DNA of 64,000 bases from Capsulimonadales bacterium (GCA_033762295.1 JANRLW010000093.1:1-64000), one strand, 5' to 3'. Counted from the first letter of the stretch, positions 2,781 to 58,338 are shown. Notes: generated by a model not told the origin, from the letters alone. Made by a program: numbers and translations.

Positions 2781-3494
2781 ATGAATCAGCCTACATCGCG
2801 GCGCGCCGCCTTTACCCTGATCGAGCTGCTCGTCGTCATCGCCATAATCGCGATACTTGCCGCCATCCTGTTCCCGGTCTTCGCTCAGGCACGGGAAAAA
2901 GCCCGACAGACGTCCTGCCTTTCCAATAACAAGCAGTACGCCCTGGCGACGCTGATGTATCTTCAGGATTATGATGAGACCTTTCCGATGTCCGCCTATC
3001 TGAACCAGGTGTGCGTCGCAACGTTCTATCAGGTGGTCGAACCGTACGTCAAGAACCAGCAGGTCACCCGTTGCCCGAGCGAGGACAGCGCGATCCGGAT
3101 TGCGGATCTGGTCGGCTTCCCGTGCGCCGGAACCCCGCCGTTCACCAGCTACGTGGTCAATCACGCGCTATTCGTCAACGGGTTCGTCCCGGGCATCTCG
3201 GCGACGACCCTCGGCGCGGTGAACCGCTCCGCCGAGACGATCATGATCTACGACGGCAACGCCACCTTCGGCGCGGCGCCCGGACAGCAGATCCAGCTGG
3301 TACAGGCCCGGCATACGGGAACGTTCAGCGCGAGTTTCGTCGACGGACACGTCAAGGCGATTCAGGCGACCGAGACCGGCAAAGCGAATCAGTTCACGGT
3401 CGCCGGACCGGGGCGGGAACTCAAGGTATACACCATCGGCGCGAACGGTGGTTTCTATGCGGGCGGAACGGAGTGCCTCGGTATTCCGCAGTAG
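2781..3494 (+). CDS. Prepilin-type N-terminal cleavage/methylation protein, DUF1559/H-X9-DG type
   Basis: [59 protein letters not shown]. Confidence 0.9.
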
Positions 3495-19429: not shown

Positions 19430-19455
19430 TCCCGATTAATCGGGATTAATCTCGA
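19426..19455. repeat. 24-bp perfect palindrome and 10-bp tandem repeat joining two convergent stop codons
   Basis: TTAATCCCGA TTAATCGGGA TTAATCTCGA; 19426-19449 is self-complementary. Confidence 0.85.
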
Positions 19456-22196
19456 TCCGGTCGCGCGGCCGGGACTTTGCCTCGCACCGGCGCCGGCGGC
19501 TCGCTGCGTACGCCCCGGACGCTCTTCCAGAGCAGGCGGTTCATCAGGACAGGGTCCGCGCTGTCCGGACGTTTCAGGTCCATTTTGGCCGAGGCCGCGA
19601 GGAGCCTCTCCCACTCCGAACCGGGCGCACCCGCCGTCACCTTCTCCTGAAAGATCGACGGCGACGGCATGATCGCCGTGAAGGGCGCATCGTTGCTCGG
19701 AGCGCTGTCCCAGACGTCGAAGTGATCGGCGATGGCATCGTACTGGCTCAACGGGGGAAGGCCGAGCAACAGTTCCATCGTCCTCAGAACGCTGTCCGTG
19801 TTGTAGAACCGGTGATCGACCGTCCCTTTTTTCACCCACGGGCTGATAACCAGACAGGGTGAGCGGTGCGTATCGATATGATCCGGGCCGTCCTGCGCGT
19901 CATCCTCGATCACGAAGACCGCGGAACTCTTCCAGATCGGGCTTTTCGACAGCAGTTCGACAAACTGGCCGATGGCGTAATCGTTGTCGGCGACGTAGGC
20001 GCGGGGTGTGGGTGCGCCTTTGGACAGGCCGTTGGTATGGTCGTTGCAAAAGCGGACCATGACGAACGCCGGGTAACTCTCGCCGGTCGGGTCCTTCGCC
20101 ATGAACTGATCGAACTCGTTTTTGAACTCCAGGAAGCGGCAGGTGGCTTTATGCTTGCCGTAGGTCTCCATTTTGAACGGCGCACCCGCCCGGAGCGGCC
20201 CTTCGCTGTCGGCGTAATCCATGTCGTAGCGACGGAAATCGTAATCGGTGATCCCGGCGAGGTCGTGCCCCTCCGGCTGCAGTCCGGCATGGGCGGGATA
20301 GTTATCCGGGACGACCGGCGCGGTCCCCGCCGAGAGGCCGAATCCGTAATTCCGGTATGGCAGCCCGGCCCGCTTCACGGCATCCCAGATACCGCCGTTC
20401 GGACCGTCGGCGATGTCGACGATCGGGGGCATGGCTCCGAGGATCGACAGCGTCTTGCCATCGACGTCCCTGGCCGGGTGTCCGCCGACGAGGTAACCGT
20501 TGTTCTGGCCTTCGAAATCGTAGCGTGATTCGGCGGAACGACCGGAGTAGTTATAGGGCAGGTTTTTGATGACATACTCGTTGGCGTAGGAACGGGTGGA
20601 CCAGGTCCAGCCGTCGCCGCTCGCCTCTCCGGAAACGAAGAACCGGTCGAACAGCGCGAAGCGGCGCACGATCGCGTGAACGTTCGGCGTGACTTCCTCT
20701 CCGAAGAGGGTCAGGTTCGGGTCGCCGTCGCCGAGGGGACGCCCGTTTTCGTCCTTCAGGTCGCCGAGAACCTGATCGTAGGTCCGGTTCTCGCGGACGA
20801 TGTAGAAGACGTGTTTGATCTTCCCGGCTTTGCGCCCGAACCGGGCCAGCGGGTTGGTTTTCGGGCGCACCATGCTCTGCGCGATACGCGCATCCTGCAG
20901 CACCTGGCGGGTGAGAGCCGGCAGGGCTTGCGGGGTCGGCAGGTCGATCCACTGCACGGTCCCTTCGATCATCATCAGGTCGTAGAAGTTGTCGTCGGAC
21001 TTGCGCCGCGGATCGTAGGGGGTGAAGGTCGGGTTGGGAAGGCGTCGGTCGATCCCCTTGGCGTTGGCGACGAGCAGTCGCCGGTTATTAGGCAGGGCGG
21101 CGACGCCGGTCGGGTACCACCCGGTCGGAAGAAAGCCAAGAACCCGGCGCGTTCGCACATCGACCTGCGCGACGGCGTTGAGATCGCCGCAGGCGACGTA
21201 CAGGGTCGATTCGTCGGGAGAGAGCGCCAGTCCGACGGGCGAGACGCCCGGCAGGTCGGCGACGGTCTCCGGGCGCAGTTTTATCGTGCCGATCACCTTG
21301 CGGGAGGGGACATCCAGGATGGAGACGGTATCTGCGGTCGCGTTGGCCACGTAAAGCCGGGACTGGTCGGCATTGAAGAGGAGAGCGCAGGGATGCCCGC
21401 CGGTTTCGATACTTGCGAGCAGGGTCGGTGGCTGTGTCGGGGTAACGTTGCCGGTCGCCAGAGCGTAGACGCGCCCGTCCCGCTGGCTGGTGACGAAGAC
21501 GACACTGCCGTCGTTGAGGGCGGCGATGGCGAAGGGATAGTTCGGCAGCGGGGAGATCGATCCGAAGTCGAAGCGATGGATCTCTTTCTTCGTCGTGAGA
21601 TCGTACACGGAGACGGTTCCGTGCTCCCGGACGGGGGCCAATCCCTTCATCGTGGCGAAGACGGACGGTGTGTTATTGGCGACGAAGAGGCGATTACCGG
21701 CCACGGCCACACCGGCCGGCGTATCGCCGGGCTGTAATTTGCGAATATCCTCCTTGCGTGGTCCGTCGATGGTCGCGGTGCGGGAGAGGGTTTTGCCGTC
21801 GGCGGTCAGCGAGAGGACGACGACGGCGTCGTTCCCGCCCTGTCCGGCATAGACGGTATAGGAACCGTCGGAGTTACGAACGGCGGCGAGACCGTAGTAC
21901 AGTCCGTCGCGCGACCCCTGCGGGAAGAGGAGGGAAGCGGTTTTCGCACCGGAGTTCAGATCGAAGACGGTTAAATATTGTCGGAAGCCGATATCGGACA
22001 CCAGAGCGAACCGGCGATCCGGTGTGACGATGACGTTGATCGGCATCGAACCGACGTCGGTTTTGGTCCCGGTCGGCGAGATGAAGCGACCGGTGACCAG
22101 CGGGTCCTGCGCCCGCGCCGGGGTCGTTCCCGTCACGGCAAGGAGGCCGCCGAGGGCAAAAAAGAGCGAAAAATCGATGCGCCGGTCCTGTTTCAC
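19446..22196 (-). CDS. Secreted YVTN/YncE beta-propeller plus alkaline-phosphatase-superfamily phosphoesterase
   Basis: GTG 22196 with GGAGA SD; signal peptide; LYVANA and PTGWYPT blades; IKHVFYIVRENRTYDQVLGD, NDHT, EDDAQDGPDHID. Confidence 0.85.
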   Translation of the reverse strand: MKQDRRIDFSLFFALGGLLAVTGTTPARAQDPLVTGRFISPTGTKTDVGSMPINVIVTPDRRFALVSDIGFRQYLTVFDLNSGAKTASLLFPQGSRDGLYYGLAAVRNSDGSYTVYAGQGGNDAVVVLSLTADGKTLSRTATIDGPRKEDIRKLQPGDTPAGVAVAGNRLFVANNTPSVFATMKGLAPVREHGTVSVYDLTTKKEIHRFDFGSISPLPNYPFAIAALNDGSVVFVTSQRDGRVYALATGNVTPTQPPTLLASIETGGHPCALLFNADQSRLYVANATADTVSILDVPSRKVIGTIKLRPETVADLPGVSPVGLALSPDESTLYVACGDLNAVAQVDVRTRRVLGFLPTGWYPTGVAALPNNRRLLVANAKGIDRRLPNPTFTPYDPRRKSDDNFYDLMMIEGTVQWIDLPTPQALPALTRQVLQDARIAQSMVRPKTNPLARFGRKAGKIKHVFYIVRENRTYDQVLGDLKDENGRPLGDGDPNLTLFGEEVTPNVHAIVRRFALFDRFFVSGEASGDGWTWSTRSYANEYVIKNLPYNYSGRSAESRYDFEGQNNGYLVGGHPARDVDGKTLSILGAMPPIVDIADGPNGGIWDAVKRAGLPYRNYGFGLSAGTAPVVPDNYPAHAGLQPEGHDLAGITDYDFRRYDMDYADSEGPLRAGAPFKMETYGKHKATCRFLEFKNEFDQFMAKDPTGESYPAFVMVRFCNDHTNGLSKGAPTPRAYVADNDYAIGQFVELLSKSPIWKSSAVFVIEDDAQDGPDHIDTHRSPCLVISPWVKKGTVDHRFYNTDSVLRTMELLLGLPPLSQYDAIADHFDVWDSAPSNDAPFTAIMPSPSIFQEKVTAGAPGSEWERLLAASAKMDLKRPDSADPVLMNRLLWKSVRGVRSEPPAPVRGKVPAARPDRD

Positions 22197-22239
22197 GTTC
22201 CGTTCTCCCTGAAAAATCCGAAGGAAGGGATTCAGGGAC

Positions 22240-22272
22240 ATTGTGCCGCATCCTTGTTAAGCCAAGATTAAG
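22240..22272 (-). promoter_or_regulatory. Pho-box-like direct repeat with -10 element for the phosphoesterase gene
   Basis: Minus strand CTTAATcttggCTTAAC (11-bp period), CACAAT 15 nt after the second TTAA. Confidence 0.6.
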
Positions 22273-32221: not shown

Positions 32222-33352
32222 TCAGCGGGGAATCGGCGCGCCACAGGACTGACGAACGATCAGGCGCATCGGCAGTTCGATCTCCCGGAACGGAAGCGGA
32301 ACGTCGTTCGGCGAAGCGATGCGATGCAAGAGCACGTCGCCCGCCGTCCGGCCCAGCTCCTCGAAGGGCTGCGCGACCGTGGTAATACCGAAAGCGTCGA
32401 GCAGGGAGGGGAGCAGGTCACCGAACCCGGTAACCGCCAGGTCCTCGGGGACGCGCATTCCCAGCCCGCGGGCGAACCGGATCAGGTGCGCGGCGACCAG
32501 GTCGTTGGCGCAGACGACGGCGGTCAGCGGATCGCCGCCCGCCCGCAGAAAACCGGCGACCGTCTCCGTCGACAGGCAGCGACTCCCACCCTCCTGATGA
32601 TGGACCAGACGGGGAAGGTCCGGGTCGATTCCCACCGTCCGCAACGCGTCCGCGTATCCGGCCAGACGACGATGGATCGCACTGGCCTGCGGCTCGCCCG
32701 AAAGGAATCCGATCCGGCGATGACCCAGCGAAAGCAGGTGCTCGGTGACGGTGCGTCCGCCCGCGACATCCTCGAAACCGACAAAATCCGTCTCGAACCC
32801 CGGCAGCAGACGGTCGATCAGAACCAGCGGAAGGGCGTCCCGGAGGCGGCGGTAGGGCGCGACCATCGCCGGAATCTGCGGCCAGACGACCAGGCCACGG
32901 ATACCCCGCTGCCGGAGCGTATCGAGGGGAGGAAGGAAATCGTCCGGTCCCGCGCCGTCCCAGGCCGTGCCCTTGTCGCCGGGATCGTGCCAGTAAGTCG
33001 GGAGATTCTCCTCATCGAGGCGCCGCGCCAGCCCGCGAAAGACGGCGGACGGCGCGGTGGTGTCCGAAAAGGTGCGGATGACCAGAAGCATTCCCCCGAC
33101 CGTCGGAGCCGAACGAAAGCCGGGCGCGACGCGCGTGCCGCGTGTCGAATCGCGGAGCAACACTCCCTCAGCGACCAGATGCTCCAGCGCATGCCGAACG
33201 GTGTCCCGCTGAACGCCGAACTCGGCCATCAACTGGCGTTCGGAAGGAATGCGGTCGTTCGGATAGCCGCCCTGCGCGATCCGGTCCCGCAGGGTTCGAG
33301 CGATTCGACGATACCGAAACAGGGAGCCGTCCGGTGATTCCATCTGTGCCAT
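32222..33352 (-). CDS. GntR-type HTH + LacI-type sugar-binding domain regulator (AraR-like architecture)
   Basis: IPSERQLMAEFGVQRDTVRHAL; LGHRRIGF, VPEDLAVTGFGD, LIVRQSC. Confidence 0.88.
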   Translation of the reverse strand: MAQMESPDGSLFRYRRIARTLRDRIAQGGYPNDRIPSERQLMAEFGVQRDTVRHALEHLVAEGVLLRDSTRGTRVAPGFRSAPTVGGMLLVIRTFSDTTAPSAVFRGLARRLDEENLPTYWHDPGDKGTAWDGAGPDDFLPPLDTLRQRGIRGLVVWPQIPAMVAPYRRLRDALPLVLIDRLLPGFETDFVGFEDVAGGRTVTEHLLSLGHRRIGFLSGEPQASAIHRRLAGYADALRTVGIDPDLPRLVHHQEGGSRCLSTETVAGFLRAGGDPLTAVVCANDLVAAHLIRFARGLGMRVPEDLAVTGFGDLLPSLLDAFGITTVAQPFEELGRTAGDVLLHRIASPNDVPLPFREIELPMRLIVRQSCGAPIPR

Positions 33353-33424
33353 TGGTATACTTCTACCATCCGAAGGGCCGGTCATGCCATGCTTCCGCCG
33401 TGAAGTCGTCGCTCACCTCGAAGA

Positions 33425-33441
33425 TTTAACCGACATTTAAT
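33425..33441 (+). promoter_or_regulatory. Pho-box-like direct repeat upstream of a prepilin gene
   Basis: TTTAACcgacaTTTAAT; TATATT 15 nt after the second TTAA, TATAAT at 33465. Confidence 0.6.
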
Positions 33442-33457
33442 ATACCATTGGTATATT
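33439..33457. promoter_or_regulatory. Palindromic operator, probably for the adjacent GntR regulator
   Basis: AATATACCA-T-TGGTATATT; partial copy CCATTGGTATA at 33349-33359 over the regulator start codon. Confidence 0.7.
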
Positions 33458-33546
33458 TTTGCCGTATAATCGGTTCGAGAGTAAAACGTCGGTGGCGCCC
33501 GCCCCACCCGGCGCGGTCGCCACCGCCCTGAAAGGTATCTTCCATT

Positions 33547-34449
33547 ATGGCTTCTTTTCCAGTCGCCGCAACCCGTGGCCGGCAGGCGTTTACCCTGATC
33601 GAGTTGCTCGTGGTTATCGCCATTATCGCGATTCTGGCCGCCATTCTTTTTCCCGTCTTCGCACAGGCACGGGAGAAAGCCCGACAGACTTCCTGCCTTT
33701 CCAACGTCAAGCAGATCAGTGTCGGCATGCTGATGTACACGCAGGATTACGATGAGTGTCTGCCCGAACCGGGATTGGCCGGGGTCTTCCGCAACGCCAC
33801 TAACTCCGGCCTCGGACAGCTTTTCTCCGGCGTCCTGCCGTTCCACCTGGCGATTCAGCCCTACATCAAGAATTATCAGGTATTCGGTTGCCCGAGCGAC
33901 CCGTTCAAGCAGAACGCCTCCATCGACCGGACCGGCGTCATCGATATGTTCAAGGCGGCGGGCGTTCCCGGAGCGGATCAACTGCCCGCGTATAGCAACG
34001 TCGCGTCGTTCCATCAGGCGGTCGCGAAAATCTTCCCCAACTCCTACGCCACCAACTATTTCCTGTCCTGGCAGTACGGCTATACCTCGCGCGGCAGTAA
34101 CACGTTCCTCGACCGTGATACGTCGATCCCCGGTCGGCGCGGTCGGTCGCTCGTCGAGTTCACCGAGCCGGCGAACACCTGGATTATGACGGAGTACGGC
34201 ACCAACTCCATCACCGGCAACGGCGGCTGGTACTGCTATCCGGGCTACCTGAACGCCCAGATCACCAACGGCAACTTCCAGCGATGGCGCGGTGGTCGCC
34301 GGCATCAGGAAGGGCGGCACTGGCTGTTCGTCGACGGGCATGTCAAATGGCTGAAGGACCCGGCGTTCGAAGTGAACGGCGTCCCGGTCCCGGACGGCGA
34401 TATACGGCTGTCCTATGAGGCGCGGCAGGTCTACACCTACCCCAACTGA
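33547..34449 (+). CDS. Prepilin-type DUF1559/H-X9-DG protein
   Basis: [11 protein letters not shown]..., [20 protein letters not shown]. Confidence 0.9.
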
Positions 34450-34458
34450 GCCGATCGC

Positions 34459-34516
34459 ACGAGAGCGGGGAGAACCCCGCGTATCCCGCTCTCGTCCCTT
34501 CTCGTCCCTTCTCGTC
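34459..34516 (+). terminator. Hairpin after the prepilin gene followed by CTCGTCCCTT tandem copies
   Basis: ACGAGAGCGGG (34459-34469) pairs with CCCGCTCTCGT (34485-34495). Confidence 0.55.
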
Positions 34517-34546
34517 GTGGCCCGTGTCTTCCGGTACAATGAAGGG

Positions 34547-35944
34547 GTGAACCTCTTCGATGTCGAGACGCCGCCCGCCGCGCCCCCGCCCGTGCCCCCG
34601 GTCGCCGACACGGCCTCCGATCGCCCGCCGCTGGCCGCGCGGATGCGTCCGCAAACCCTGGATGAGGTGGTCGGACAGGAGGAACTGATCGGCCCCGGCA
34701 AACCGCTGCGCCGGGCCATCGAGCAGGATAACCTGCGTTCCGCCATCTTCTTCGGGCCGCCCGGCTGCGGCAAGTCCACCGTCGCCGGAGTGATCGCCCG
34801 CACGACGAAAGCCCATTTCGAGAACTTTTCCGCCGTCAGCGGGGGCGTCGCCGAGGTTCGCAAACTGATCGACGCCGCGAGGGAGCGACGCAAGGCGTAC
34901 CAACGGCGGACGCTGCTGTTCGTCGATGAGATCCACCGTTTCAACAAGGCGCAGCAGGACGCCTTTCTGCCGCACGTCGAGGACGGCACGATCATCCTGA
35001 TCGGCGCAACCACCGAAAACCCCTATTTCAGCGTCAATGCCCCCCTGCTGTCGCGCGCCCGTGTCTTCCGATTCTCGGCGCTGACCGGCGAGGACATCGG
35101 CGAGGCGCTGGATCGCGCCCTGACCGATACCGAACGGGGGTTGGGCGCGGATCGGATCGCGCTGGCACCGGACGCGCGGGTCTTTCTCGTCGGAGCGGCG
35201 GGCGGCGATGCGCGTTCGGCGCTGAACGCGCTCGAACTGGCCGCCAGCCTGGCGGGACCGGGCGGGACAATCACCCTGGAATCGGCTGAGGAGGCGGTCG
35301 GACAGCGGACCATCGGGTATGACCGGGATGGGGACGCGCACTACGACACCATTTCGGCGTTCATCAAATCGATGCGCGGCTCCGATCCCGATGCCGCCAT
35401 CTACTATCTCGCCCGGATGCTGGAAGCGGGGGAGGACGCCCGGTTCATCGCGCGCCGACTGGTCATCCTGGCATCCGAGGATGTCGGGAACGCCGACCCG
35501 TCCGCCCTGCCGCTGGCGGTAGCCTGCTTCCACGCCACCGAAAACATCGGTCTGCCGGAATGCGCTCTGAATCTGGCGCAGACGACGCTCTATCTGGCGT
35601 CCGCGCCCAAATCCAATGCCTCGACGGTTGCTCTGGGCCGTGCGCAGGAGGCGGTCCGATCGAGCGCGTTCGCCGGGATTCCGAAGCACCTGCGCGACAG
35701 CCACTACCGGGGCGCGAAGGCGCTCGGTCATGGCGCGGGCTACCTGTACCCCCACGACTTCGCCGGCAGTTACGTCCCGCAGCGGTACCTGCCCGACGGT
35801 CTGCCGGAGGACGGCAGACCGTTCTACGAACCCACCGAAAACGGGGTCGAGGCAAAGATCAAGGCCCGTCTCGCGGCGTTAAAGGCGCGGCATGCGACGA
35901 CGGCGCAGGAGGAACCCGCCTCCGACCGCCCCGGACAGGAATAA
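34547..35944 (+). CDS. rarA: Replication-associated recombination protein A (RarA/MgsA)
   Basis: PLAARMRP, GPPGCGKST, LFVDEIHRFNKAQQD, SAFIKSMRGSDPDAA, SEDVGNADP; GTG 34547 inferred. Confidence 0.93.
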   Translation: MNLFDVETPPAAPPPVPPVADTASDRPPLAARMRPQTLDEVVGQEELIGPGKPLRRAIEQDNLRSAIFFGPPGCGKSTVAGVIARTTKAHFENFSAVSGGVAEVRKLIDAARERRKAYQRRTLLFVDEIHRFNKAQQDAFLPHVEDGTIILIGATTENPYFSVNAPLLSRARVFRFSALTGEDIGEALDRALTDTERGLGADRIALAPDARVFLVGAAGGDARSALNALELAASLAGPGGTITLESAEEAVGQRTIGYDRDGDAHYDTISAFIKSMRGSDPDAAIYYLARMLEAGEDARFIARRLVILASEDVGNADPSALPLAVACFHATENIGLPECALNLAQTTLYLASAPKSNASTVALGRAQEAVRSSAFAGIPKHLRDSHYRGAKALGHGAGYLYPHDFAGSYVPQRYLPDGLPEDGRPFYEPTENGVEAKIKARLAALKARHATTAQEEPASDRPGQE

Positions 35945-36706
35945 GGCGATCACCGACGGTTCCGGGCTGTTCGCCTGACCGTTCGAGATGACGCTCACAT
36001 TATCCACACCCATCGCCAGGACACTGACGCTCTGCACCTGCGCGAACCGCAGCATGTAGCGACCGCCCGGTGAAACGAAGTTGGTGATGTCGATGGTGTA
36101 CTGGATGTAGGGAGCCGGGTCCGAAACCGACGAGCTGAACTCCGTACCGATATAGAGGTTGCGCCGGACGTCCGTCGCCGCCGTCGAGAACGGCGCGGCG
36201 TCGACGTTCAACAGGTCGACCCGTCCGAACTGGTTCGGATCGAAGGGGTCGAAAAAGGAGAACAGTTCGTCAGGCGGAGCGGACGGCGAGACGATCGGGC
36301 CGAACCCGGCATAGTCGGCGACGAACATCTGAAACCGCAGCGTCACCCGGTCCACGAAGCCGTGCGGGACCGTAAAGTACTGATACAGAGCGTAGGCTCC
36401 GGGAAACCCTTCCGAACCGGTCGGCGGCGTCACCGCCGCATAGTGATCCCCGCCGCCACCCGGCAGAGTGTTGGCCGCCGTGTAAAACTGATTGGCGAAA
36501 ATCCCGCCGGGCAGATCCGTTCCCGGCGTGTCCAGGACCCAGCCGCCGAAGGAACCGGGCTCGATCGACCGTCGCCAGGCGAACAGGTTGCCGAGTTCGA
36601 AATCGCCGTTCTTCAATAACTCCAGAGCGTTCAGCGCATGGGCGGGACGGGCGGTCAGCCCGCCGAGCGCGACGACCAGAGCCGCCAGCGAGAACCATCT
36701 TCGCAT
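35879..36706 (-). CDS. Secreted PEP-CTERM sorting domain protein
   Basis: GAGGTGG SD, signal peptide, LLKNGDFE, C-terminal PEPSVIALFLSGAVGGGFLLRRRR. Confidence 0.85.
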   Translation of the reverse strand: MRRWFSLAALVVALGGLTARPAHALNALELLKNGDFELGNLFAWRRSIEPGSFGGWVLDTPGTDLPGGIFANQFYTAANTLPGGGGDHYAAVTPPTGSEGFPGAYALYQYFTVPHGFVDRVTLRFQMFVADYAGFGPIVSPSAPPDELFSFFDPFDPNQFGRVDLLNVDAAPFSTAATDVRRNLYIGTEFSSSVSDPAPYIQYTIDITNFVSPGGRYMLRFAQVQSVSVLAMGVDNVSVISNGQANSPEPSVIALFLSGAVGGGFLLRRRRMPRL

Positions 36707-37078
36707 CGATCCACCTCTTTCCGTTTCCGGAAACCGACCGTGCGGGGCCGAGAACGCGAAACACCCCCGAAACACGAAAAACGCGGCCCATCGTCGGTTA
36801 CCGCTGTCGATTATCGGTCGACGGTTACTCACTGCATAGAATAGTTTTGCCGGGTTTTGTTCGGTATGGACCTTAAATTTCGCCCGATATAAAAAATAAA
36901 CGTACATTAAAGTATGGCAATTAAAGTCGAAAACATACAAACCCGTGAAATTGCTATTTTCAATTTACGTTAATTAAAGGAAACTATAGCCACGGTGGGT
37001 TCCGGGCATTCCGCCGACTCACCCGGCTTACGCCGCCCATGACAAAACGGCTTGTCCCCTGACAGGAAAGGCGCCACA

Positions 37079-38737
37079 ATGGTTTCTCGTATCAGGCAAC
37101 GCGGTCGATGGTTCATCTCCTGTGCCCTTTTGCTTCTCAGCGTTCTTCCCGCCTCCGCACAGAGCGGAATCACCGACGCCGAAGCAACCCGCTTTCTCGA
37201 ACAGTGTACGTTCGGACCCGTGAAAACGGACGTCGATCGGGTCAAACAGATCGGATACTCCGCGTTCGTCAATGAGCAGTTCGGAAAACCGAACTCCAAC
37301 TATACGTTCATCAACACGACCAACGGACTGGCCGGTATGCGTCAGCGGTTCTACCGGAACGCGGTACGGCAGTCGGACCAACTGCGGCAGCGAGTCGCGT
37401 TCGCGCTGAGCCAGGTGGTGGTCAGCTCCGGCGAGGACCCCGATGTCGACTCGTCTCAGCGGATCGCGGCCACGACCGCCTATCAGCACCTTCTGCTCAA
37501 GCACGCCTTCGGCAACTACCGAGCGCTCCTGTACGAGATGACCCTGAACCCGCTGATGGGCGTCTTCCTCGATATGGCGAATAACCGGAAGCCGGACCCG
37601 AAAACCAACAGTCTGCCCAACGAAAACTACGCCCGCGAACTGCTCCAGCTGTTTTCCCTGGGCGTCAACGAACTGAACCGCGACGGTACGATCAAGCGGG
37701 ACATCAACGGCGACCCGATTCCGACCTACGGGAACGAGGAGGTGACGGAGTTCGCGCGGGTCTTCACCGGGTGGACGTTCGCTCCCCGGCCGGGCAAGAC
37801 GTTCAACGGGTTCCAGCCGGAGAACTTCAACGCGCCGATGGCGCTCTGGGCCCCGCTCCATGACGTCGGCGAGAAACGCCTGCTCCGCGGATGGGTCCTG
37901 CCGGCGATCCAGCCGGGAATCCCCACCAACACCAACAACACTGCGCTGATCCTGTACGCCTCGAACGAACTGAACTATGCGATCGACAGCATCTTCAACC
38001 ATCCGAACATCGCGCCGTTCGTCGCCACCCGTCTGATTCAGCACCTGGTCACCGCCAGCCCGACGCCCGCCTATGTGGATCGGGTCGCCGCCGCCTTCGA
38101 GAACAACGGGGCCGGCGTGCGCGGGGACATGAAGACGGTGATCCGGGCGGTCCTGCTCGATTCCGAAGCCCGCGGCACCGCCGTCGCCCAGGCGACTCCC
38201 GGCTACGGACACTGGCGCTCCGGCGTCCTGTTTATCACCAGCCTCCTGCGGCAACTGGATGCCCAGGGAGACCTGGCCGGCATGGACGCCTGGTCGACCG
38301 ACCTCAAACAGCGCGTCTTCGCTCCCCCGAGTGTCTTCAGCTACTACAGCCCGTTTACCACGTTGCCGGTGAGCAACGGCTCGACCACCGTCAGCTACCC
38401 CGCGCCGGAAACCGGCACCATGACCACCGAATCGCTGATTCTGCGGATCAATTTCGTCAATGCCCTGCTCTTCGGGACGATCTCTTCGGACCTTTCCGGC
38501 TATACCGGCGTCACCGGGCTGAATATCCCCGACTATCTGGCCGTGGCTCTGAACACCAATTCGCTGGTCGACCTGATCGCCGTGCGACTGATGCACAACG
38601 ACATAACCTCGGAACTGCGAACGCGGATCGCGACGGCGGTGGACGCGATCCCGGCCACGGAAGCCAACCGGACGAAACGCGCCCGAACCGCCCTGTATCT
38701 GGCCGCCTGCTCCCAGGAATATCAGTTCATTCGATAA
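37079..38737 (+). CDS. DUF1800 family protein
   Basis: ATRFLEQCTFG, DQLRQRVAFALSQ, PNENYARELLQLFSLG, PPSVFSYY. Confidence 0.9.
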   Translation: MVSRIRQRGRWFISCALLLLSVLPASAQSGITDAEATRFLEQCTFGPVKTDVDRVKQIGYSAFVNEQFGKPNSNYTFINTTNGLAGMRQRFYRNAVRQSDQLRQRVAFALSQVVVSSGEDPDVDSSQRIAATTAYQHLLLKHAFGNYRALLYEMTLNPLMGVFLDMANNRKPDPKTNSLPNENYARELLQLFSLGVNELNRDGTIKRDINGDPIPTYGNEEVTEFARVFTGWTFAPRPGKTFNGFQPENFNAPMALWAPLHDVGEKRLLRGWVLPAIQPGIPTNTNNTALILYASNELNYAIDSIFNHPNIAPFVATRLIQHLVTASPTPAYVDRVAAAFENNGAGVRGDMKTVIRAVLLDSEARGTAVAQATPGYGHWRSGVLFITSLLRQLDAQGDLAGMDAWSTDLKQRVFAPPSVFSYYSPFTTLPVSNGSTTVSYPAPETGTMTTESLILRINFVNALLFGTISSDLSGYTGVTGLNIPDYLAVALNTNSLVDLIAVRLMHNDITSELRTRIATAVDAIPATEANRTKRARTALYLAACSQEYQFIR

Positions 38738-38755
38738 GCGACGGAGGAATCGATA

Positions 38756-40144
38756 ATGGAACATATGCTCTCTCGCCGCGCCCTGCTGATCAACGGCGCG
38801 CGTACCCTCGGGGCGGCGGCCCTCGTCTCCCGGTTCGGCGTTCTCAGCGCGATGGCGCAGACGACCGGCGGCAACGAACCCTATAAGGCTCTCGTCTGCA
38901 TCTTTCTCAACGGCGGCAACGACGCCTTCAATATGATCGTCCCGATCGAGGACGCCCCGTACACGGACTACCTGCATGCCCGGCGCGACCTGGCGCTGCC
39001 CCGCGCCGGAGTCGGCGCCCTCCTGCCGATCTTCTCGCAGAACGGCACGGGCGACCGCTACGGACTGCACCCCGAACTTAACAACCTGCACCCGCTGTAT
39101 GAGGCGGGGAAGATGGCGGTGTTGTGCAATGTCGGCACTCTGACCTACCCGATCTCCTCGCCGTCCGAATACCGCAGTCGTCCCGGACTACGTCCGCGCG
39201 AACTGTTTGCGCACGACTATCAGATCGATACCTGGCAGCACCTCGGCATGGAGGAAGGCTGGGGCAACGGCATCGCCCGTATACTGGAACAGCGGGCGAT
39301 CAACCCCAGCCCGACCATCCCGTTCCTGGTCAACGTCGCCGGAGGAGCGTCGATCTATGTCGCCGGGTCCGCGCCCTACATCACCCTCCCGTTCGGCTCA
39401 CAACTTGGCCGCCTGACCCTCAAAGGGTTCACCTCCTCGACCCAGGATCAGGCCCGGCTGAACGCCCTGCGGGAGATCTATCGCATTCCGCATCCCGACC
39501 CGGTCGTCCGGGCGGTCAGCACGCGGACCGACAAGGCGATCTCCGACGGGCAGACCGCTTCCGAAATCCTTTCCACGACCACCCTGAACACCGTCTTCCC
39601 GGAGACCGGCATCGGACGGCAGTTGAAACAGGCGGCGCTGATGATCAAGTCGCGGGACGTTCTGGGAGCGAACAAGCGGCAGATGTTCTTCGCCTCGATC
39701 GGAGGGTTCGATACGCACGATATCCAGCTTTCGACCCATTCCCGACTGATGCGGCAACTCGGCGATGCGCTGGCGGCATTCTACGCGGCGACGGTCGAGA
39801 TCGGCGTGGAAAACAGCGTGACCGCCTTCACCCTGAGCGAGTTCGGTCGCACCGTCCAGAACTCCACCGGCGGTACCGACCATGCCTGGGGCTCGAATGC
39901 CGTGATCGTCGGCGGCGGCGTGCGCGGCGGGCAGTTCTACGGAACCTATCCCTCGCTCGTGCTCGGGGGACCGGACGATATTGAAACCGGCGGCAACGCT
40001 CGCGGACGAATTCTGCCGAAAATCGCGGTCGATCAATACGCCGGGACTCTGGCAAAATGGTTCGGTCTGTCCTCGACGGAGATAGCGGCGGTCCTGCCCT
40101 ATCTCAGCCGGTTCTCGCCCGACGACCTTGGCTTCATGGCATAG
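38756..40144 (+). CDS. DUF1501 family protein with Tat signal (DUF1800 partner)
   Basis: SRRALL, YKALVCIFLNGGND, GGFDTH, SEFGRT, GTDHAWG. Confidence 0.9.
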   Translation: MEHMLSRRALLINGARTLGAAALVSRFGVLSAMAQTTGGNEPYKALVCIFLNGGNDAFNMIVPIEDAPYTDYLHARRDLALPRAGVGALLPIFSQNGTGDRYGLHPELNNLHPLYEAGKMAVLCNVGTLTYPISSPSEYRSRPGLRPRELFAHDYQIDTWQHLGMEEGWGNGIARILEQRAINPSPTIPFLVNVAGGASIYVAGSAPYITLPFGSQLGRLTLKGFTSSTQDQARLNALREIYRIPHPDPVVRAVSTRTDKAISDGQTASEILSTTTLNTVFPETGIGRQLKQAALMIKSRDVLGANKRQMFFASIGGFDTHDIQLSTHSRLMRQLGDALAAFYAATVEIGVENSVTAFTLSEFGRTVQNSTGGTDHAWGSNAVIVGGGVRGGQFYGTYPSLVLGGPDDIETGGNARGRILPKIAVDQYAGTLAKWFGLSSTEIAAVLPYLSRFSPDDLGFMA

Positions 40145-40156
40145 ACCCGGCCTCCG

Positions 40157-40203
40157 CGCAGGAAAAGAACACCCCTCCGGCATCCCTGCCGGAGGGGTGT
40201 TCT
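40157..40203. terminator. Terminator between convergent genes; copy 1 of a duplicated element
   Basis: 17-bp perfect stem AGAACACCCCTCCGGCA-tccc-TGCCGGAGGGGTGTTCT, U-rich tail on the minus strand. Confidence 0.8.
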
Positions 40204-40253
40204 CCCCGGACCTCGTGTCCCTGCCGGGGCGACGCGCAAAGAAGGTCGTTTTT

Positions 40254-41357
40254 TCACGAAGCGTTTTTGTCGTGCAGAAGCGACTCCTCAAAGGATTCCC
40301 AGCGAAAATCGGTGCCGACAATGATGGAAATGGCATCATTGGCCGCAATGGGCGTCCCCGGTTCCGGGCAGGGGTCGGGGACCCCGTTTTTGATCAGGGC
40401 CAGCGGATTGATGCGCACCCGATGGCGTTCGGCCCCGGCGATACAGGCGGTCTGGAACTGCCCCCAGTTCCACCCGACGACCTTTTTCGGATGGACGGTG
40501 CGCGGGTTGGCTCCCACCGAAGGACGGAGCAGTTGTTGAATCGTCACGGCGGTCATGGGGTCATGGCACTCCTGCACCAGCACCAGAATCTCATCGTTTT
40601 CGAGCACGGTGGTCGAGCGCGTTCCGGCGAAGAGCCACTCGTTGTCGGCGGATACCAGTATATGGGCAAGCCGGGTGGTCGGGGGAACGAGTTTCTCAAT
40701 AATCTCCACCACCATACGTGTCGTTCCGTCGCTTTCGTCCACACCGGCCTGCTGCGGGAAAATGAGGATGGTCTTGTTTTCGGCCACTTTAGCCCGCCTG
40801 TAGGTCGTTTCACTGAGCAGGGAACCGCGCAGGAAGTGGACTTTGACACGGGGAAGGTGCAGAATCGCCGTCGGTAATCGCTCCAGCTGACTGTCAATAA
40901 TGCAGATTTCCGCCGTTCGTTCCTCGGCGGCATCCGCTACCAGTTCCGTCGCCAGGGTAATAAATTTACCGTTTCCCGGAAAGTTGATGATGATGTATCC
41001 GTTCCGAAACGGATTGTCCAGTTCGCCCATAAGTCGTCGCTCCCGCAGGTCGTTTCGCCAGTCAAACCAGGAGGAAATCGTTACCCCCAGAAACGCGATG
41101 CCCAGTACTCCGAAGACCATCGTCGTCAATCGCCCCGGCAATGTCGCCGCCGGTTTGTTGCCATACCCGACCGTGGTGACGGTCTGCCACATCTGCCAGA
41201 GCGACTCGTCCCACTCCGCCGTTTCGGTCACCTTGAAAAACACGACAAAAAGCGCACAGCTCAAGAGCAGCCAGAGGAGCGCGTTCGCGAGGTTTTCCAG
41301 GGTCGGGCGTTCCACCAGACGCTTTCTCAGGCGTCGTGGCAGGAATTGAATCAGCAT
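40254..41357 (-). CDS. Two-TM potassium channel with RCK-like cytoplasmic domain
   Basis: QTVTTVGYGN filter between two TM helices; VHFLRGS, ESDGTT Rossmann-like region. Confidence 0.85.
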   Translation of the reverse strand: MLIQFLPRRLRKRLVERPTLENLANALLWLLLSCALFVVFFKVTETAEWDESLWQMWQTVTTVGYGNKPAATLPGRLTTMVFGVLGIAFLGVTISSWFDWRNDLRERRLMGELDNPFRNGYIIINFPGNGKFITLATELVADAAEERTAEICIIDSQLERLPTAILHLPRVKVHFLRGSLLSETTYRRAKVAENKTILIFPQQAGVDESDGTTRMVVEIIEKLVPPTTRLAHILVSADNEWLFAGTRSTTVLENDEILVLVQECHDPMTAVTIQQLLRPSVGANPRTVHPKKVVGWNWGQFQTACIAGAERHRVRINPLALIKNGVPDPCPEPGTPIAANDAISIIVGTDFRWESFEESLLHDKNAS

Positions 41358-41490
41358 CGTTGATTTTCCGGGTGCCGTCCGTTCGGTAAGGGAGTCATGG
41401 TTCCGGTTCGGCAGTCAGGCAACGGAATCCTGCCGTCCGCGCCGCCGGTTCGGCGGACCGTCCTCGCACTGTCAAACTCCCCGGTCACAC

Positions 41491-41531
41491 CGCAGGAAAA
41501 AGAAAAAACCTCCGGCATCCCTGCCGGAGGT
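41491..41531 (-). terminator. Intrinsic terminator upstream of the K+ channel gene; copy 2 of the duplicated element
   Basis: ACCTCCGGCA-ggga-TGCCGGAGGT followed by TTTTTCTTTTT on the minus strand. Confidence 0.8.
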
Positions 41532-41613
41532 CCGTCATCGTCACTTCACCTGCGAACTCGGCAGCGTCGGAACGTCGGTCGTCATCGCCATGACCTCGAA
41601 ACTTCCGGTTGCC
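41495..41613 (-). ncRNA. Candidate small RNA or attenuating leader (contains 16-codon ORF 41591-41541)
   Basis: TATACT -10 at 41625-41620, internal hairpins and a strong terminator, with no long ORF to terminate. Confidence 0.4.
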
Positions 41614-41713
41614 GATGTCAGTATACGGGGTTCTTCCGACGGCGAAAAGGGCTTTTCCCTTCCCTCGACCGTCCGGCGCATTATCCCTTCGCCCGCGTCG
41701 AGCGCACGAAAGA

Positions 41714-41770
41714 CTTAACCGAAATTTAACCTTCTTATTTCATTACCTGGTATATCATTAGGTATATAAT
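41714..41770 (+). promoter_or_regulatory. Pho-box-like repeat, operator-like site and -10 for the prepilin-phosphoesterase operon
   Basis: CTTAACcgaaaTTTAAC; TATATCATTAGGTATATA; TATAAT at 41765. Confidence 0.6.
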
Positions 41771-41814
41771 GGAGGCGTCCGGGACGGTTCACCTCCCCGT
41801 TGAAAGGAAGCCTT

Positions 41815-42624
41815 ATGTCTCACCCTTCTCGGTGCCGAAATGCGGCGTTCACGCTGATCGAACTGCTCGTTGTTATCGCTATTATTGCCATACTGGCAGC
41901 GATTCTGTTCCCGGTTTTCGCGCAGGCGCGCGAATCGGGACGGCGTGCGACCTGTCTTACCCATATGCGGGAGACCGGCCTTGCCTTCCTGATGTACGCC
42001 CAGGATTACGATGAGAAATTTCCCTGCGCCGGACGCGGCGCGATCGTGACCGAACCGGGAACGACCCTCGATATGTACGGCAACTCCCAGGGGGGCGACT
42101 GGCTGGAAATCCGGTTCTGGACCGGAATGATCCTCCCTTACACCAAAAACCGGCAGATTTTCTTCTGTCCGAGCGGTACGCCGGAGGATGGAGTCCCGAA
42201 ATCGATCAACCCGAATAACACGCTGTCCAATCGGCAGATGGGGTGGATTCAGGAAAACATCGCCTGGAACTACGACGGACTTACCCCGCGATACAATTTC
42301 GGACCGCTCGGTGGCGTCGAACGCCCGGCCGAGTGTATGCTGTTGATGGACGCCGCCGAATCGGCGATCGGTCCCTGGGGACGAAACTCCCCGTCCCGAC
42401 TGCGCACGCACATCGAGTACGCCGGTCGCCGCCATCACGGACTGGCCAATATCTGCTACGTGGACGGACATGCGAAAGCGATGCGGGTCGATGCCCTGAT
42501 CAACGGAATCCCGGCGCCCTGCACCGATTACTCCGTCTTTTTCAACTACTGGATTTCGCCGGAGAACTGGCCGAGCGGCGCGCCGATCAAGGATTTCAGC
42601 CGCTGTATCGCCGGAACCCCGTAA
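41815..42624 (+). CDS. Prepilin-type DUF1559/H-X9-DG protein
   Basis: [11 protein letters not shown]..., FFCPS, RHHGLANICYVDGHAK; AAAGGAAG SD. Confidence 0.9.
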   Translation: MSHPSRCRNAAFTLIELLVVIAIIAILAAILFPVFAQARESGRRATCLTHMRETGLAFLMYAQDYDEKFPCAGRGAIVTEPGTTLDMYGNSQGGDWLEIRFWTGMILPYTKNRQIFFCPSGTPEDGVPKSINPNNTLSNRQMGWIQENIAWNYDGLTPRYNFGPLGGVERPAECMLLMDAAESAIGPWGRNSPSRLRTHIEYAGRRHHGLANICYVDGHAKAMRVDALINGIPAPCTDYSVFFNYWISPENWPSGAPIKDFSRCIAGTP

Positions 42625-42664
42625 TCGTCCGGCCAACGGAATGACAAGGAAACAATAGAACCCT

Positions 42665-43567
42665 ATGACGACCGCACGTTCGCGACGGGCCTTCCTGCGG
42701 GAAGGCTCGCTTTTCCTGACCGCCCTGTCGCTGGCGGAAGCGGAGGGCGCTCTCGCTCAGTCGACCCCCGCCACCGTCGCCGCCCTGGTGACCGATGTCC
42801 ACTTCGCCGAAGCCGATGCCCGCGGGTCCCGGCACTACCGTGAATCCATCGCCAAAATGCGCGAGGCCGCCACCACCCTCGGTCGCCGGAAACCGGATAT
42901 CGCCATCGAACTCGGAGATTTCATCGACAGCGCGCCAAAGGCCGGGGCAAAGGAGGAGAAGGCGTTCCTCAAACGGATCAACGAGGAATTCGCGACGCTA
43001 TGCCCCCGACGACACTACGTCCTCGGCAATCACTGCGTTGGCAAACTGAGCAAAAAGCAGTTTCTGGAAACGGTCGAACAGAAAAGCTCCTACTACTCCT
43101 TCGACCGGAACGGCTTTCATTTCATCGTCCTCGATGCCTGCTATCGCCGGGACGGCGTGTCGTACGACGCGGGGAACTTCGAATGGACCGATACCGAGAT
43201 CCCGCCGGAGCAGCGCGAGTGGCTCAAAGCCGACCTTAAAGCGGCCAAAGGCAAGGCGCTGGTCTTCTGCCATCAGCGTATCGACCTGGAACCGGGCAAC
43301 GAGGAAGGCATTCATAGCAGCGCCACCGTGCGCGAGATCCTGCGCGACTCGGGAAAGGTGCTCGCCGCGTTCATGGGGCACAGCCATCGAAACGAGTACC
43401 GGCAGATCGACGGCGTGCATTATGTCGCCCTGGCGGCCATGGTGGAAGGAAGCGGCGCGGAGAACAGCGGATACTCGCTTCTCCACGCCTTCCCGAACGG
43501 CGACCTCCGGCTGGATGGCTTCCGACACCATGCGGAAAACCCGTTCGCCCGCCGCAGCACCCGGTAA
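42665..43567 (+). CDS. Tat-exported calcineurin-like metallophosphoesterase
   Basis: SRRAFL; DVH, GDFID, GNH, HQ, GHSH motifs. Confidence 0.88.
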   Translation: MTTARSRRAFLREGSLFLTALSLAEAEGALAQSTPATVAALVTDVHFAEADARGSRHYRESIAKMREAATTLGRRKPDIAIELGDFIDSAPKAGAKEEKAFLKRINEEFATLCPRRHYVLGNHCVGKLSKKQFLETVEQKSSYYSFDRNGFHFIVLDACYRRDGVSYDAGNFEWTDTEIPPEQREWLKADLKAAKGKALVFCHQRIDLEPGNEEGIHSSATVREILRDSGKVLAAFMGHSHRNEYRQIDGVHYVALAAMVEGSGAENSGYSLLHAFPNGDLRLDGFRHHAENPFARRSTR

Positions 43568-57012: not shown

Positions 57013-57045
57013 CTTAACACGGACTTAATCCGAATCTGCTATCAT
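57013..57045 (+). promoter_or_regulatory. Pho-box-like direct repeat with extended -10
   Basis: CTTAACacggaCTTAAT; TGcTATCAT with the -10 15 nt after the second TTAA. Confidence 0.6.
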
Positions 57046-57111: not shown

Positions 57112-58338
57112 ATGGCGCGACTTGCTTCCTTCGCCGCTGCCGCTATTATCGGCGGTTCGCTTCTTCCGCTGAATGCCCACGCCCAGAGCGTTCAGGCGAT
57201 TCGGTTTCTCGGAGAACAGTCCTACGGCGCGCCCGGCACGCCCAAACCGACCTTCGGAGGAACGACCATCGGCGGACTCTCCGGGCTGGACTATGACGCG
57301 GCGACCGGCTCCTACGTGTCCAACAGCGACGATCAGGCCAGTCCGCGTTTCTACACCCTGACCGCCGATATCACGTCGGCCTCCTTCAACGGCGTGACGT
57401 TCACCGGGGTGACCTCGCTGCTCGACCCGGCCGGCAACGCCACGTTCGCCACCGGCAATAACGATTTTGAGAATGCCCGTCTTTCGGCGGACGGCAGCCG
57501 TGTCTTTATCACGTCGGAAGGAAACGCCGGGGCGGGCCTGAAAACCTCGATCTACGAGTTCGACCGCGCGACCGGGCGGCAGCTGAATAACTTCGACACC
57601 CCGTCCTCGTTCAATATCAGCCCCGGACACGGCACGTTCGGCAACCTCGGCCTCGAATCGATGACGTTCGCGGACGACGGGACCTATCTTGTCGCCAACG
57701 AAGGGCCGTTGCGGCAGGACAGCCCGGCGCCGAACAGCAACCCGACCGATCCGACCATCTTCAATGTGGCGGAACCGGTGCGCCTGGTGCGGTACTCCAC
57801 CGCTACCAACACCGCTCTGGCCCAGTATATCTACACCATCGACCCGCTGGCCGAACCGACGACGGCGACCAACTTTGCGGTGCAGGGACTGGTCGATATT
57901 CTCAACCTGGGGAACGATCACTATCTGGCGCTCGAGCGTTCGTTCACCGTCGGCGGGACGGCGGGCGGCGGCACCGGGTACACGATCAAGCTGTACCAGT
58001 TCTCACTGACCGGCGCGACCGATGTGAGCGGGCTGGACTCCGTGGTCGGCCAGTCGTATACCTCGGTCGCCAAGAGCCTTCTGCTGGACTTTTCCACCCT
58101 GCGGGATGCCGGCAACAACCCCCTCGTGCTGGACAATATCGAGGCCCTGACCCTGGGACCGGACCTGGGCGGCGGGGAACGCGCCCTGCTGATCGTCTCC
58201 GACGATAACTTCAGCCCGGCGCAAAAGACCCAGTTCCTGGCGTTCGCCATCACGCAGGCGCCGGAACCGGGGGCAATCGTCCTGCTGGGAGTCGGACTGC
58301 TCGGATTCGCGGGCATCGTCCGCCGACCGCGGAAATAG
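57112..58338 (+). CDS. Phytase-like (esterase-like activity of phytase) protein with PEP-CTERM tail
   Basis: GGLSGLDY, NLGLESM, LALERSF, DNIEALTLGP, VSDDNFS; APEPG-TM-RRPRK. Confidence 0.88.
   Translation: MARLASFAAAAIIGGSLLPLNAHAQSVQAIRFLGEQSYGAPGTPKPTFGGTTIGGLSGLDYDAATGSYVSNSDDQASPRFYTLTADITSASFNGVTFTGVTSLLDPAGNATFATGNNDFENARLSADGSRVFITSEGNAGAGLKTSIYEFDRATGRQLNNFDTPSSFNISPGHGTFGNLGLESMTFADDGTYLVANEGPLRQDSPAPNSNPTDPTIFNVAEPVRLVRYSTATNTALAQYIYTIDPLAEPTTATNFAVQGLVDILNLGNDHYLALERSFTVGGTAGGGTGYTIKLYQFSLTGATDVSGLDSVVGQSYTSVAKSLLLDFSTLRDAGNNPLVLDNIEALTLGPDLGGGERALLIVSDDNFSPAQKTQFLAFAITQAPEPGAIVLLGVGLLGFAGIVRRPRK

Follow-up and report, generated by a model that had tools for sequence, protein, structure and literature searches.

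Prepilin-type DUF1559 genes behind predicted phosphate-responsive promoters in a Capsulimonadales genome

Why would genes for prepilin-type proteins lie behind promoters that appear to respond to phosphate? We address this question for a 64,000-nucleotide (nt) stretch of DNA from a Capsulimonadales bacterium, referred to throughout as the window (contig C93, positions 1–64000; genome of 5.16 Mb in 132 contigs, ~64% G+C, 94.5% completeness). The window encodes three prepilin-type proteins of the DUF1559 (H-X9-DG) family, and an earlier note on this DNA had proposed that they are apparently under phosphate control and possibly serve as interchangeable, nutrient-capturing pilins. We found that DUF1559 genes are massively over-represented behind the predicted Pho box of this genome. 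The pattern, which the note had confined to two genes, involves dozens of paralogues.

The three window genes and their promoters

The two loci with a box, followed by the DUF1559 gene that lacks one, comprise:

33425..33443, + strand: predicted Pho box formed by the direct repeats TTTAACCG and TTTAATAT, whose TTAA cores lie at 33426 and 33437 (11-nt spacing; position weight matrix (PWM) score 25.7)
33465..33470, + strand: −10-like hexamer TATAAT, 28 nt past the second TTAA, in the modal 26–28 nt class (read from the sequence)
33547..34449, + strand: prepilin-type DUF1559/H-X9-DG protein, 300 amino acids (aa), behind the predicted Pho-box promoter (Pfam and TIGR profiles)
41714..41732, + strand: predicted Pho box formed by the direct repeats CTTAACCG and TTTAACCT, whose TTAA cores lie at 41715 and 41726 (PWM 23.0)
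41753..41770, + strand: two candidate −10 hexamers, TATCAT at 41753–41758 (27 nt past the second TTAA) and TATAAT at 41765–41770 (read from the sequence)
41815..42624, + strand: prepilin-type DUF1559/H-X9-DG protein, 269 aa from the ATG at 41815 (Pfam, AlphaFold2 model)
42665..43567, + strand: metallophosphoesterase (Metallophos) with a twin-arginine translocation (Tat) signal, 300 aa (Pfam, leader SRRAFL)
2781..3494, + strand: DUF1559 paralogue without a Pho box, first gene of a beta-propeller/SSF symporter/dehydrogenase operon (Pfam)

The 15-mer TTAACCGAMATTTAA occurs exactly at 33426–33440 and 41715–41729, upstream of 33547 and 41815 (genes are named here by their start), bearing out the claim that two of the three prepilin genes are boxed. 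When up to three mismatches were allowed, the window held 3 matches against 0.47 expected, a number reached in 2 of 100 shuffles. Genome-wide, the exact 15-mer is found three times, each upstream of a DUF1559 gene, with the third copy on C106.

We picked 43 open reading frames (ORFs) in the window by third-position G+C (GC3) and scanned them with Pfam. The three DUF1559 proteins matched PF07963 (N_methyl) at 32.7–34.1 bits (cut-off 21.2) as well as TIGR02532, and scored 38.9, 49.7 and 26.9–27.0 bits with PF07596 (DUF1559/SBP_bac_10; gathering score 23.3). All three translations contain the near-C-terminal H-X9-DG, and the TIGR04294 cut-off of 19 was reached among them by 33547 alone (24.0). 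An alternative start of the third gene lies at 41800 (ORF 41800/41815–42624), with the ATG at 41815, just preceded by GAAAGGAAG, being the likelier one. As the earlier note had stated, a Tat metallophosphoesterase gene begins 40 nt past the stop at 42624; its twin-arginine leader was read by eye, and the two genes are probably co-transcribed. The gene after 33547 encodes a RarA/MgsA ATPase according to the Pfam scan and is probably unrelated to it. Also in agreement with the note, 2781 lacks a box (best upstream PWM score, 0.0) and heads an operon encoding PQQ-type beta-propellers, an SSF symporter and dehydrogenases. No pilus assembly gene was found among the 43 ORFs, as had been said of the window.

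Distribution of the box across the genome

Among the 2397 TTAA sites in the genome, 88 pairs are 11 nt apart, compared with 22 at 10 nt and 2–15 at the remaining spacings between 4 and 40 nt, where about 6 is typical. The 11-nt pairs form 97 chains of 2–5 repeats, 70 of which have an ORF downstream in motif orientation. The oriented consensus reads a-Y-TTAA-Y-(not T), n-T-n-n and a second Y-TTAA-Y, and a search for the strict pattern, YTTAAY-N5-YTTAAY, gave 64 sites, compared with 3 for the reversed control. Using a crude set of 3546 ORFs called by a GC3 heuristic, we scored positions −300 to +90 of each start with a PWM made from the oriented sites. At PWM ≥ 14, a box was present at 36 of 122 pilin-like genes and at 36 of 3424 others (Fisher, 1.5e-35), while at PWM ≥ 18 the box-bearing genes numbered 36 pilin-like and 28 others. 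Thus, approximately half of the predicted Pho promoters drive DUF1559 genes. A six-frame search identified 133 prepilin ORFs of DUF1559 size with the same N-terminus, 103 of them with an exact H-X9-DG, and located a box no more than 400 nt upstream of 38 of the 133.

We scanned the 34 non-pilin box-bearing genes with Pfam. They include pstS, followed by a fused pstCA, pstB and phoU; phnD, which has five repeats and, as the one member scanned, comes first in a gene cluster on C112; four beta-propeller/PF04185 phosphoesterases, one of which is the window gene 19446–22241; the phytase-like window gene 57112–58338; genes for Y_phosphatase3, a purple acid phosphatase, a GDPD_2 protein and a GT4 glycosyltransferase; and DUF1501 and PSCyt-type proteins, some regulators and unknowns. 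The motif comprises two or more direct repeats that recur every 11 bp, is phased with the −10 hexamer and stands at the pst operon and at phosphatase genes as well as at DUF1559 genes. From these features, the TTAA-repeat motif is very probably the Pho box of this organism, and the Pho control postulated earlier is upheld in silico. As for a regulator, a gene for a PhoB-like response regulator (C36:1205–2086) stands next to one for a PAS kinase; a genome-wide search with the PhoB response-regulator model yielded 43 matches, several of which span the full length.

The consensus is the same as that of the cyanobacterial SphR regulon, in which 8-bp TTAA-core units CTTAACCT with 3-bp linkers, and hence an 11-bp period, are present in at least two copies before pstS and before genes for phosphatases and nucleases (Su et al. 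2007, PMC1906773). In contrast to the SphR regulon, the host here is probably a member of the Armatimonadota, and the set of approximately 65 promoters is far larger, with half of them at DUF1559 genes. Table 1 of two-box genes in the SphR paper, and the text near it, contain no DUF1559 genes (PMC1906773).

Promoter geometry was assessed as the distance from the last perfect TTAA to a TANNNT hexamer at 36 pilin and 28 other promoters. The 26–28 nt class accounts for 26 of the 36 pilin promoters and 8 of the 28 others, whereas the 15 nt class accounts for 3 and 10, respectively. The two classes differ by one 11-bp turn, and both window promoters fall at 27–28 nt. Both groups of promoters share this phasing, and with its box one turn further from the −10 hexamer, a typical pilin promoter resembles a weaker form of a common activated promoter.

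Further features of the window bear on this regulon:

22256..22272, − strand: predicted Pho box of the phosphoesterase gene 19446–22241 (PWM 27.5)
19446..22241, − strand: secreted beta-propeller + PF04185 phosphoesterase, 931 aa, predicted Pho-regulon member (Pfam)
57013..57030, + strand: predicted Pho box of the phytase-like gene 57112–58338 (PWM 21.0)
57112..58338, + strand: phytase-like esterase (PF13449), predicted Pho-regulon member (Pfam)
33440..33456, no strand assigned: perfect palindrome of 17 nt, ATATACCATTGGTATAT, in the 33547 promoter, flanked by the Pho box and the −10 hexamer (from the sequence; single copy in the genome)
32222..33385, − strand: regulator with a GntR helix-turn-helix and a LacI-type Peripla_BP_3 sensor domain, divergent from 33547 (Pfam)

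The palindrome is a candidate operator of the divergent GntR-type regulator, and TGGTATA repeats occur at the same position in the promoters of the 33547 orthologues of two relatives (G003 and G002). Its location beside a divergent GntR/LacI-type gene suggests dual control of 33547, by Pho and by a ligand-specific repressor.

Two further TTAA-containing sites in the window were not assigned as Pho boxes. The third motif match, a weak one at 36959–36973, has one perfect TTAA and a PWM score of 13.0; it lies in a degenerate box (36941–36975; one perfect TTAAC plus TTGAA) upstream of 35879–36940 (− strand), which encodes a 353-aa protein without a Pfam match and may belong weakly to the Pho regulon. 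At 19426, the TTAAT repeats are palindromic and ambiguous in orientation, and were not counted; TTAATCCCGATTAATCGGGATTAATC, at 19420–19450, is a palindromic TTAAT array with a 10-nt period between the 3′ ends of the convergent genes 18263–19429 and 19446–22241. Beside the latter phosphoesterase gene, a NERD-domain gene (22268–23269, − strand) lies in a low-GC stretch (0.577 against ~0.64) that may be acquired DNA.

Phylogenetic analysis was used to place the box within the family. A FastTree tree of 113 mature paralogues, which left out 9 of the 122 with a mature length below 180 or above 420 aa, required 21 changes of the box label, compared with 30.6 ± 2.0 in shuffles (0 of 300 as low), and its well-supported branches force at least 6 changes. 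The label is therefore clustered in small clades yet spread over the family, and these counts rule out a single Pho subfamily of box-bearing paralogues. The near-identical N-terminal helix reported for the three window proteins was present in all of them. It marks no special link among the three, this helix being a trait of approximately 133 paralogues; a special kinship is likewise ruled out, as the nearest paralogues of the window genes are on other contigs and identities do not exceed 49%. The residue at −1 of the predicted cleavage site is Ala in 85 of 133 paralogues and Gly in 48, with 31 Ala and 7 Gly among the box-bearing copies.

Operon partners, relatives and protein build

A same-strand gene lies within 200 nt of 20 of the 36 box-bearing DUF1559 genes. 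The first partners are phosphoesterases in six cases (Metallophos three times, including the window pair, a beta-propeller phytase, PF04185 and GDPD) and PSCyt1/PSCyt2/PSD1 proteins in three, two of which are followed by DUF1501. The other partners include a beta-helix protein, a polyketide-cyclase-like protein, DUF218, DUF1559 (three cases) and two proteins without a Pfam match. We also examined 30 partners of box-less DUF1559 genes, which comprise TPR proteins (five), Metallophos (three), PQQ propellers (two), a thiamine pyrophosphokinase, a glucoamylase, GT4, DUF4198, PepSY_TM, CMD and a LON-substrate domain, with 12 lacking a Pfam match. When PSCyt/DUF1501 partners are counted together with phosphoesterases, the tally is 9 of 20 boxed against 3 of 30 box-less genes (p = 0.007). 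This tabulation of neighbours and promoter motifs shows that DUF1559 neighbourhoods are not random, in line with the earlier note, and that the phosphoesterase bias is modest. Large TPR proteins recur after DUF1559 genes (for example at C40:14576–17471, C40:19609–22940, C18:72331–75818, C85:14626–17089 and C92:1915–4786), and one box-bearing DUF1559–TPR case was seen in another genome, G034.

We next turned to relatives. Three same-family genomes have an orthologue of 33547, with the box kept upstream in two: G003 (75% identity) retains the dimer, and G021 (66%) has a three-position array with a degenerate middle unit. At the G002 orthologue (75%), the contig ends 233 nt upstream, and this stretch contains no box. 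The sole 41815 orthologue (G021, 68%) has a five-position array and a Metallophos gene downstream. Of 24 same-family genomes, 10 have a Metallophos orthologue, with 11 loci in all. All 41815 homologues with a source name are labelled Armatimonadetes or Chthonomonadales, the basis for placing the host in the Armatimonadota, and a search of genome contigs with the Metallophos protein returned a sole, distant match, from the Phycisphaeraceae (36% identity), of no help for synteny or taxonomy.

Counts of the strict pattern against its reversed control were 8/1 in G006 and 2/17 in G009, both of the same family, and 24/12 in G034, 40/15 in G035 and 24/10 in G028, which belong to another family of the order. 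Among 30 loci sampled across these five genomes, boxes preceded DUF1559 genes at two sites in G034, three in G028 and one in G035; other sampled boxes precede phoU-, pitA-, phoB- and pstC-like genes, as judged by eye from N-termini rather than by Pfam. In G028, two boxes are each followed by a DUF1559 gene, a four-repeat box by DUF1559 and then Metallophos, and a further box by an OprO/P-type porin gene. In G035, a box precedes DUF1559 and a PF04185 phosphoesterase, while in G034 a four-repeat box precedes DUF1559 and a TPR protein, and another box DUF1559, a 194-aa protein and an S1/P1 nuclease. These loci indicate that the layout of box, DUF1559 and enzyme recurs with non-orthologous genes in a second family. 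The G028 locus (C1:625500–634500) is a compact Pho island, with four box arrays in 7 kb, three DUF1559 genes, Metallophos and the porin, which has an SLH domain.

We used AlphaFold2 to model the 41815 protein from 60 homologues (pLDDT 89.9, pTM 0.84). The model consists of a 51-residue N-terminal helix and a small mixed globular head, with the H-X9-DG region forming a beta-hairpin. F+1 and E+5 are invariant in the 60 homologues, and a Cys pair, a QDYDE-like acidic patch and DGH are also invariant or nearly so. In a profile search of solved structures, the N-terminal helix alone was matched, and a Foldseek search of the model against the PDB returned nothing at E ≤ 0.001. Among the best 50 of 48,161 chains in a structural search, the only matches spanning the head were PilA4 (Z 5.0), EpsG (Z 4.3; 94 residues aligned, root-mean-square deviation 3.1), a type IVb pilin (Z 4.2) and PulG (Z 3.7); none of these 50 was a solute-binding-protein chain, the type evoked by the Pfam name SBP_bac_10. 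Though weak, these matches would fit a fold of the pilin or pseudopilin type with insertions. With TIGR01710 (GspG), the window proteins scored 27.1–37.5 bits, below the equivalog cut-off of 88.85, through a match confined to the helix. Complex prediction for the 41815 head (residues 40–269) and Metallophos (34–300) gave a score of 0.00, which carries no weight either way.

The DUF1559 proteins share with GspG/EpsG/PulG and type IVa pilins a class-III signal, F+1, E+5 and a long helix, and their small head aligns weakly with EpsG, PulG and PilA4. Unlike those proteins, they have a head approximately twice as large, and their genes, in more than 100 copies, are scattered outside assembly operons. 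The genome encodes one prepilin peptidase (Peptidase_A24, 34.7 bits), four full-length PilB/GspE ATPases, five PilT-like ATPases and three secretins, making processing and assembly possible. Short pilin-like ORFs (approximately 112–190 aa) with a distinct N-terminus, FTLIEIMIVV…, occur at C2:8971, C14:70497, C71:28468–29828, C75:54257–54822 and C121:20595–22055, and on C121 a pseudopilin cluster shares the contig with a GspE-type ATPase. These ORFs are likely to encode true major pilins or pseudopilins that DUF1559 proteins might join.

Possible roles of the Pho-controlled paralogues

The family may be linked to a second nutrient in this genome. A thiamine pyrophosphate (TPP) riboswitch (RF00059, 63.3 bits, gathering score 54.3; C6:54384–54502, − strand) lies directly upstream of the DUF1559 gene C6:53446–54369, which is followed by a thiamine pyrophosphokinase gene; the next gene of this locus (C6:52720–54502) encodes a polysaccharide deacetylase/NAGPA protein. 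The Plug domain (PF07715) had no match in this 94.5%-complete genome, and a TonB-barrel search gave a single weak match (C116:7850–9118, 56.7 bits), so the lineage may lack classical TonB-dependent uptake. The TPP-riboswitch paralogue and the lack of Plug-domain receptors make capture or uptake somewhat more plausible. Together with the Pho data, they favour a view of the paralogues as envelope modules, each specific for a nutrient and controlled by that nutrient's regulator.

On this basis, we tentatively prefer a reading in which the Pho-controlled DUF1559 proteins are capture or hand-over modules in phosphorus acquisition, a proposal about as apt to prove wrong as right. A PhoB/SphR-type regulator would bind two to five direct YTTAAY repeats with 11-bp spacing, phased to a −10 hexamer 15 or 26–28 nt downstream, and would activate approximately 65 promoters, around half of them at DUF1559 genes; at 33547, an extra palindromic operator for a GntR-type regulator would add a second control. 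The class-III signal (basic leader, A/G|F at +1, E at +5, hydrophobic helix) would be cut by the single prepilin peptidase of the genome, and the processed proteins would remain anchored in the inner membrane or join a short type II/type IV-like fibre through one of the four PilB/GspE-type machines. The conserved helix and variable head suggest exchangeable, substrate-specific envelope modules, of which the Pho-controlled set would capture organic phosphorus (phosphoesters, nucleic acids, phytate) or hand it to Tat/Sec-exported phosphoesterases, in a lineage seemingly without TonB-dependent receptors. A bolder extension would make DUF1559 pseudopilins the exchangeable, substrate-specific parts of a TonB-independent outer-membrane import system (pilus- or secretin-based), the counterpart of TonB receptors/SusCD in Armatimonadota and the Planctomycetota–Verrucomicrobiota–Chlamydiota (PVC) phyla, with PhoB driving approximately 38 organophosphate-specific copies and the TPP riboswitch a thiamine-specific one; we consider it unlikely.

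Several observations weigh against the capture or hand-over reading. The PWM scores the very sites used to build it (a limitation shared by neither the 11-nt spacing statistic nor the gene identities), and the gene calls came from the crude GC3 heuristic. No pilus-assembly gene was found among the 34 scanned non-pilin box-bearing genes, and Ala at −1 is unusual for prepilin peptidase substrates. Structural matches to pilins do not exceed Z 5, a weak similarity, and the tree shows the box label dispersed among many small clades. The partners of the boxed copies include the housekeeping genes GpsA, MutS2 and RarA (the last after 33547), three DUF1559–Metallophos pairs have no Pho box, and phosphoesterase partners alone do not differ significantly between boxed and box-less genes (6 of 20 versus 3 of 30, p = 0.13). 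In addition, 16 of the 36 box-bearing genes have no close downstream partner. In relatives, only 1 of the 11 Metallophos loci (G021) has DUF1559 and TTAA repeats within its 1.5-kb flank, some flanks being cut by contig ends, and none of the 9 boxes sampled in the same-family genomes G006 and G009 precedes a DUF1559 gene.

One alternative is that the proteins bind no nutrient and act as secretion or anchoring accessories, that is, as cargo-specific adaptors for type II-like export or surface tethering of hydrolases. DUF1559 genes often stand directly upstream of Tat/Sec-exported enzymes, the head is as similar to the major pseudopilins EpsG/PulG as to pilins, the genome has several GspE-type ATPases and secretins, and the Hxc type II system of Pseudomonas fluorescens exports a phosphate-limitation-induced protein (PMC2225411). 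We nevertheless regard this role as improbable, given that many boxed phosphatases have no DUF1559 neighbour and many DUF1559 genes no enzyme neighbour, that most Metallophos orthologues in relatives have no pilin gene nearby, and that the TPP-riboswitch copy, beside a cytoplasmic-type thiamine kinase, fits uptake better. The proteins could instead remodel the surface under phosphorus stress, serving adhesion, aggregation or motility, for example in attachment to phosphorus-rich particles, with no direct role at a substrate or enzyme. Type IV filaments commonly serve adhesion and motility, and both the solitary position of the 16 partnerless genes and the scatter of the box label across the family tree would suit such a role. 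Substrate-induced adhesive pilins are also known, as in Caldicellulosiruptor bescii PilA, a xylan-induced, xylan-binding pilin (bioRxiv 10.1101/614800). The order of box, DUF1559 and phosphoesterase or nuclease in four genomes, together with the tie of another paralogue to a vitamin riboswitch, renders remodelling rather improbable.

A different doubt concerns the boxes themselves, which at DUF1559 genes might not be functional Pho sites, having been copied along with duplications or being bound by another OmpR-family regulator. The clustering of boxed paralogues beyond chance (21 changes versus 30.6 ± 2.0) fits such copying, and the 43 PhoB-model matches would supply other regulators; moreover, most pilin promoters have just two perfect repeats and lie one helical turn further from the −10 hexamer than many phosphatase promoters. 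Yet the motif, its orientation and its phasing are as at pstS and the phosphatases, the flanks and the distance to the start codon vary, the boxes are kept at orthologues of 66–75% identity and recur in another family, and at least 6 independent changes are forced on the tree, all of which makes non-functional boxes highly improbable.

The preferred capture or hand-over reading has distant precedents only. Hxc and LapA of Pseudomonas aeruginosa are under Pho regulation. As proposed for the present case, Pseudomonas Hxc ties a machine of the pilin superfamily to phosphate scavenging under phosphate limitation (PMC2225411); unlike Hxc, which is one dedicated secretion operon, the system here consists of dozens of single genes with their own Pho boxes and no assembly genes alongside. 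For Planctomycetes, dextran-binding fibres have been described and fibre-associated uptake speculated on (PMC5394234); there, as with C. bescii PilA, pilus-like fibres attach to a nutrient polymer and are regulated together with its utilisation. These fibres and C. bescii PilA (bioRxiv 10.1101/614800) concern unidentified fibres or one major pilin together with carbohydrates and, in the parts of the reports cited here, neither DUF1559 nor phosphorus. Our search of the literature on DUF1559, H-X9-DG, Armatimonadetes prepilins, and prepilin cleavage with phosphate found no published link between DUF1559 and phosphate.

Genomes of Planctomycetota, Verrucomicrobiota, Lentisphaerota and Armatimonadota carry DUF1559 genes by the tens to hundreds, and the family ranks among the largest without an assigned function in these phyla. 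Rhodopirellula baltica has 74 paralogues (PMC2754498), and in Planctopirus limnophila 68 form the biggest paralogue group, with two of them essential (PMC10632474). The proteins described here resemble the DUF1559/TIGR04294 families of Planctomycetota in their two-part build, very many paralogues and unassigned function; in contrast to the literature on these families, approximately 30% of the copies are tied to a defined regulon and operon partners. With that share of one genome's copies in a clear predicted Pho regulon, near phosphate-releasing enzymes, the family gains a testable role in phosphorus scavenging. If the Pho-controlled copies are indeed capture or hand-over modules, they would explain how such bacteria feed on large substrates without TonB receptors, and would open a new branch in Pho-regulon biology as well as in environmental phosphorus cycling.

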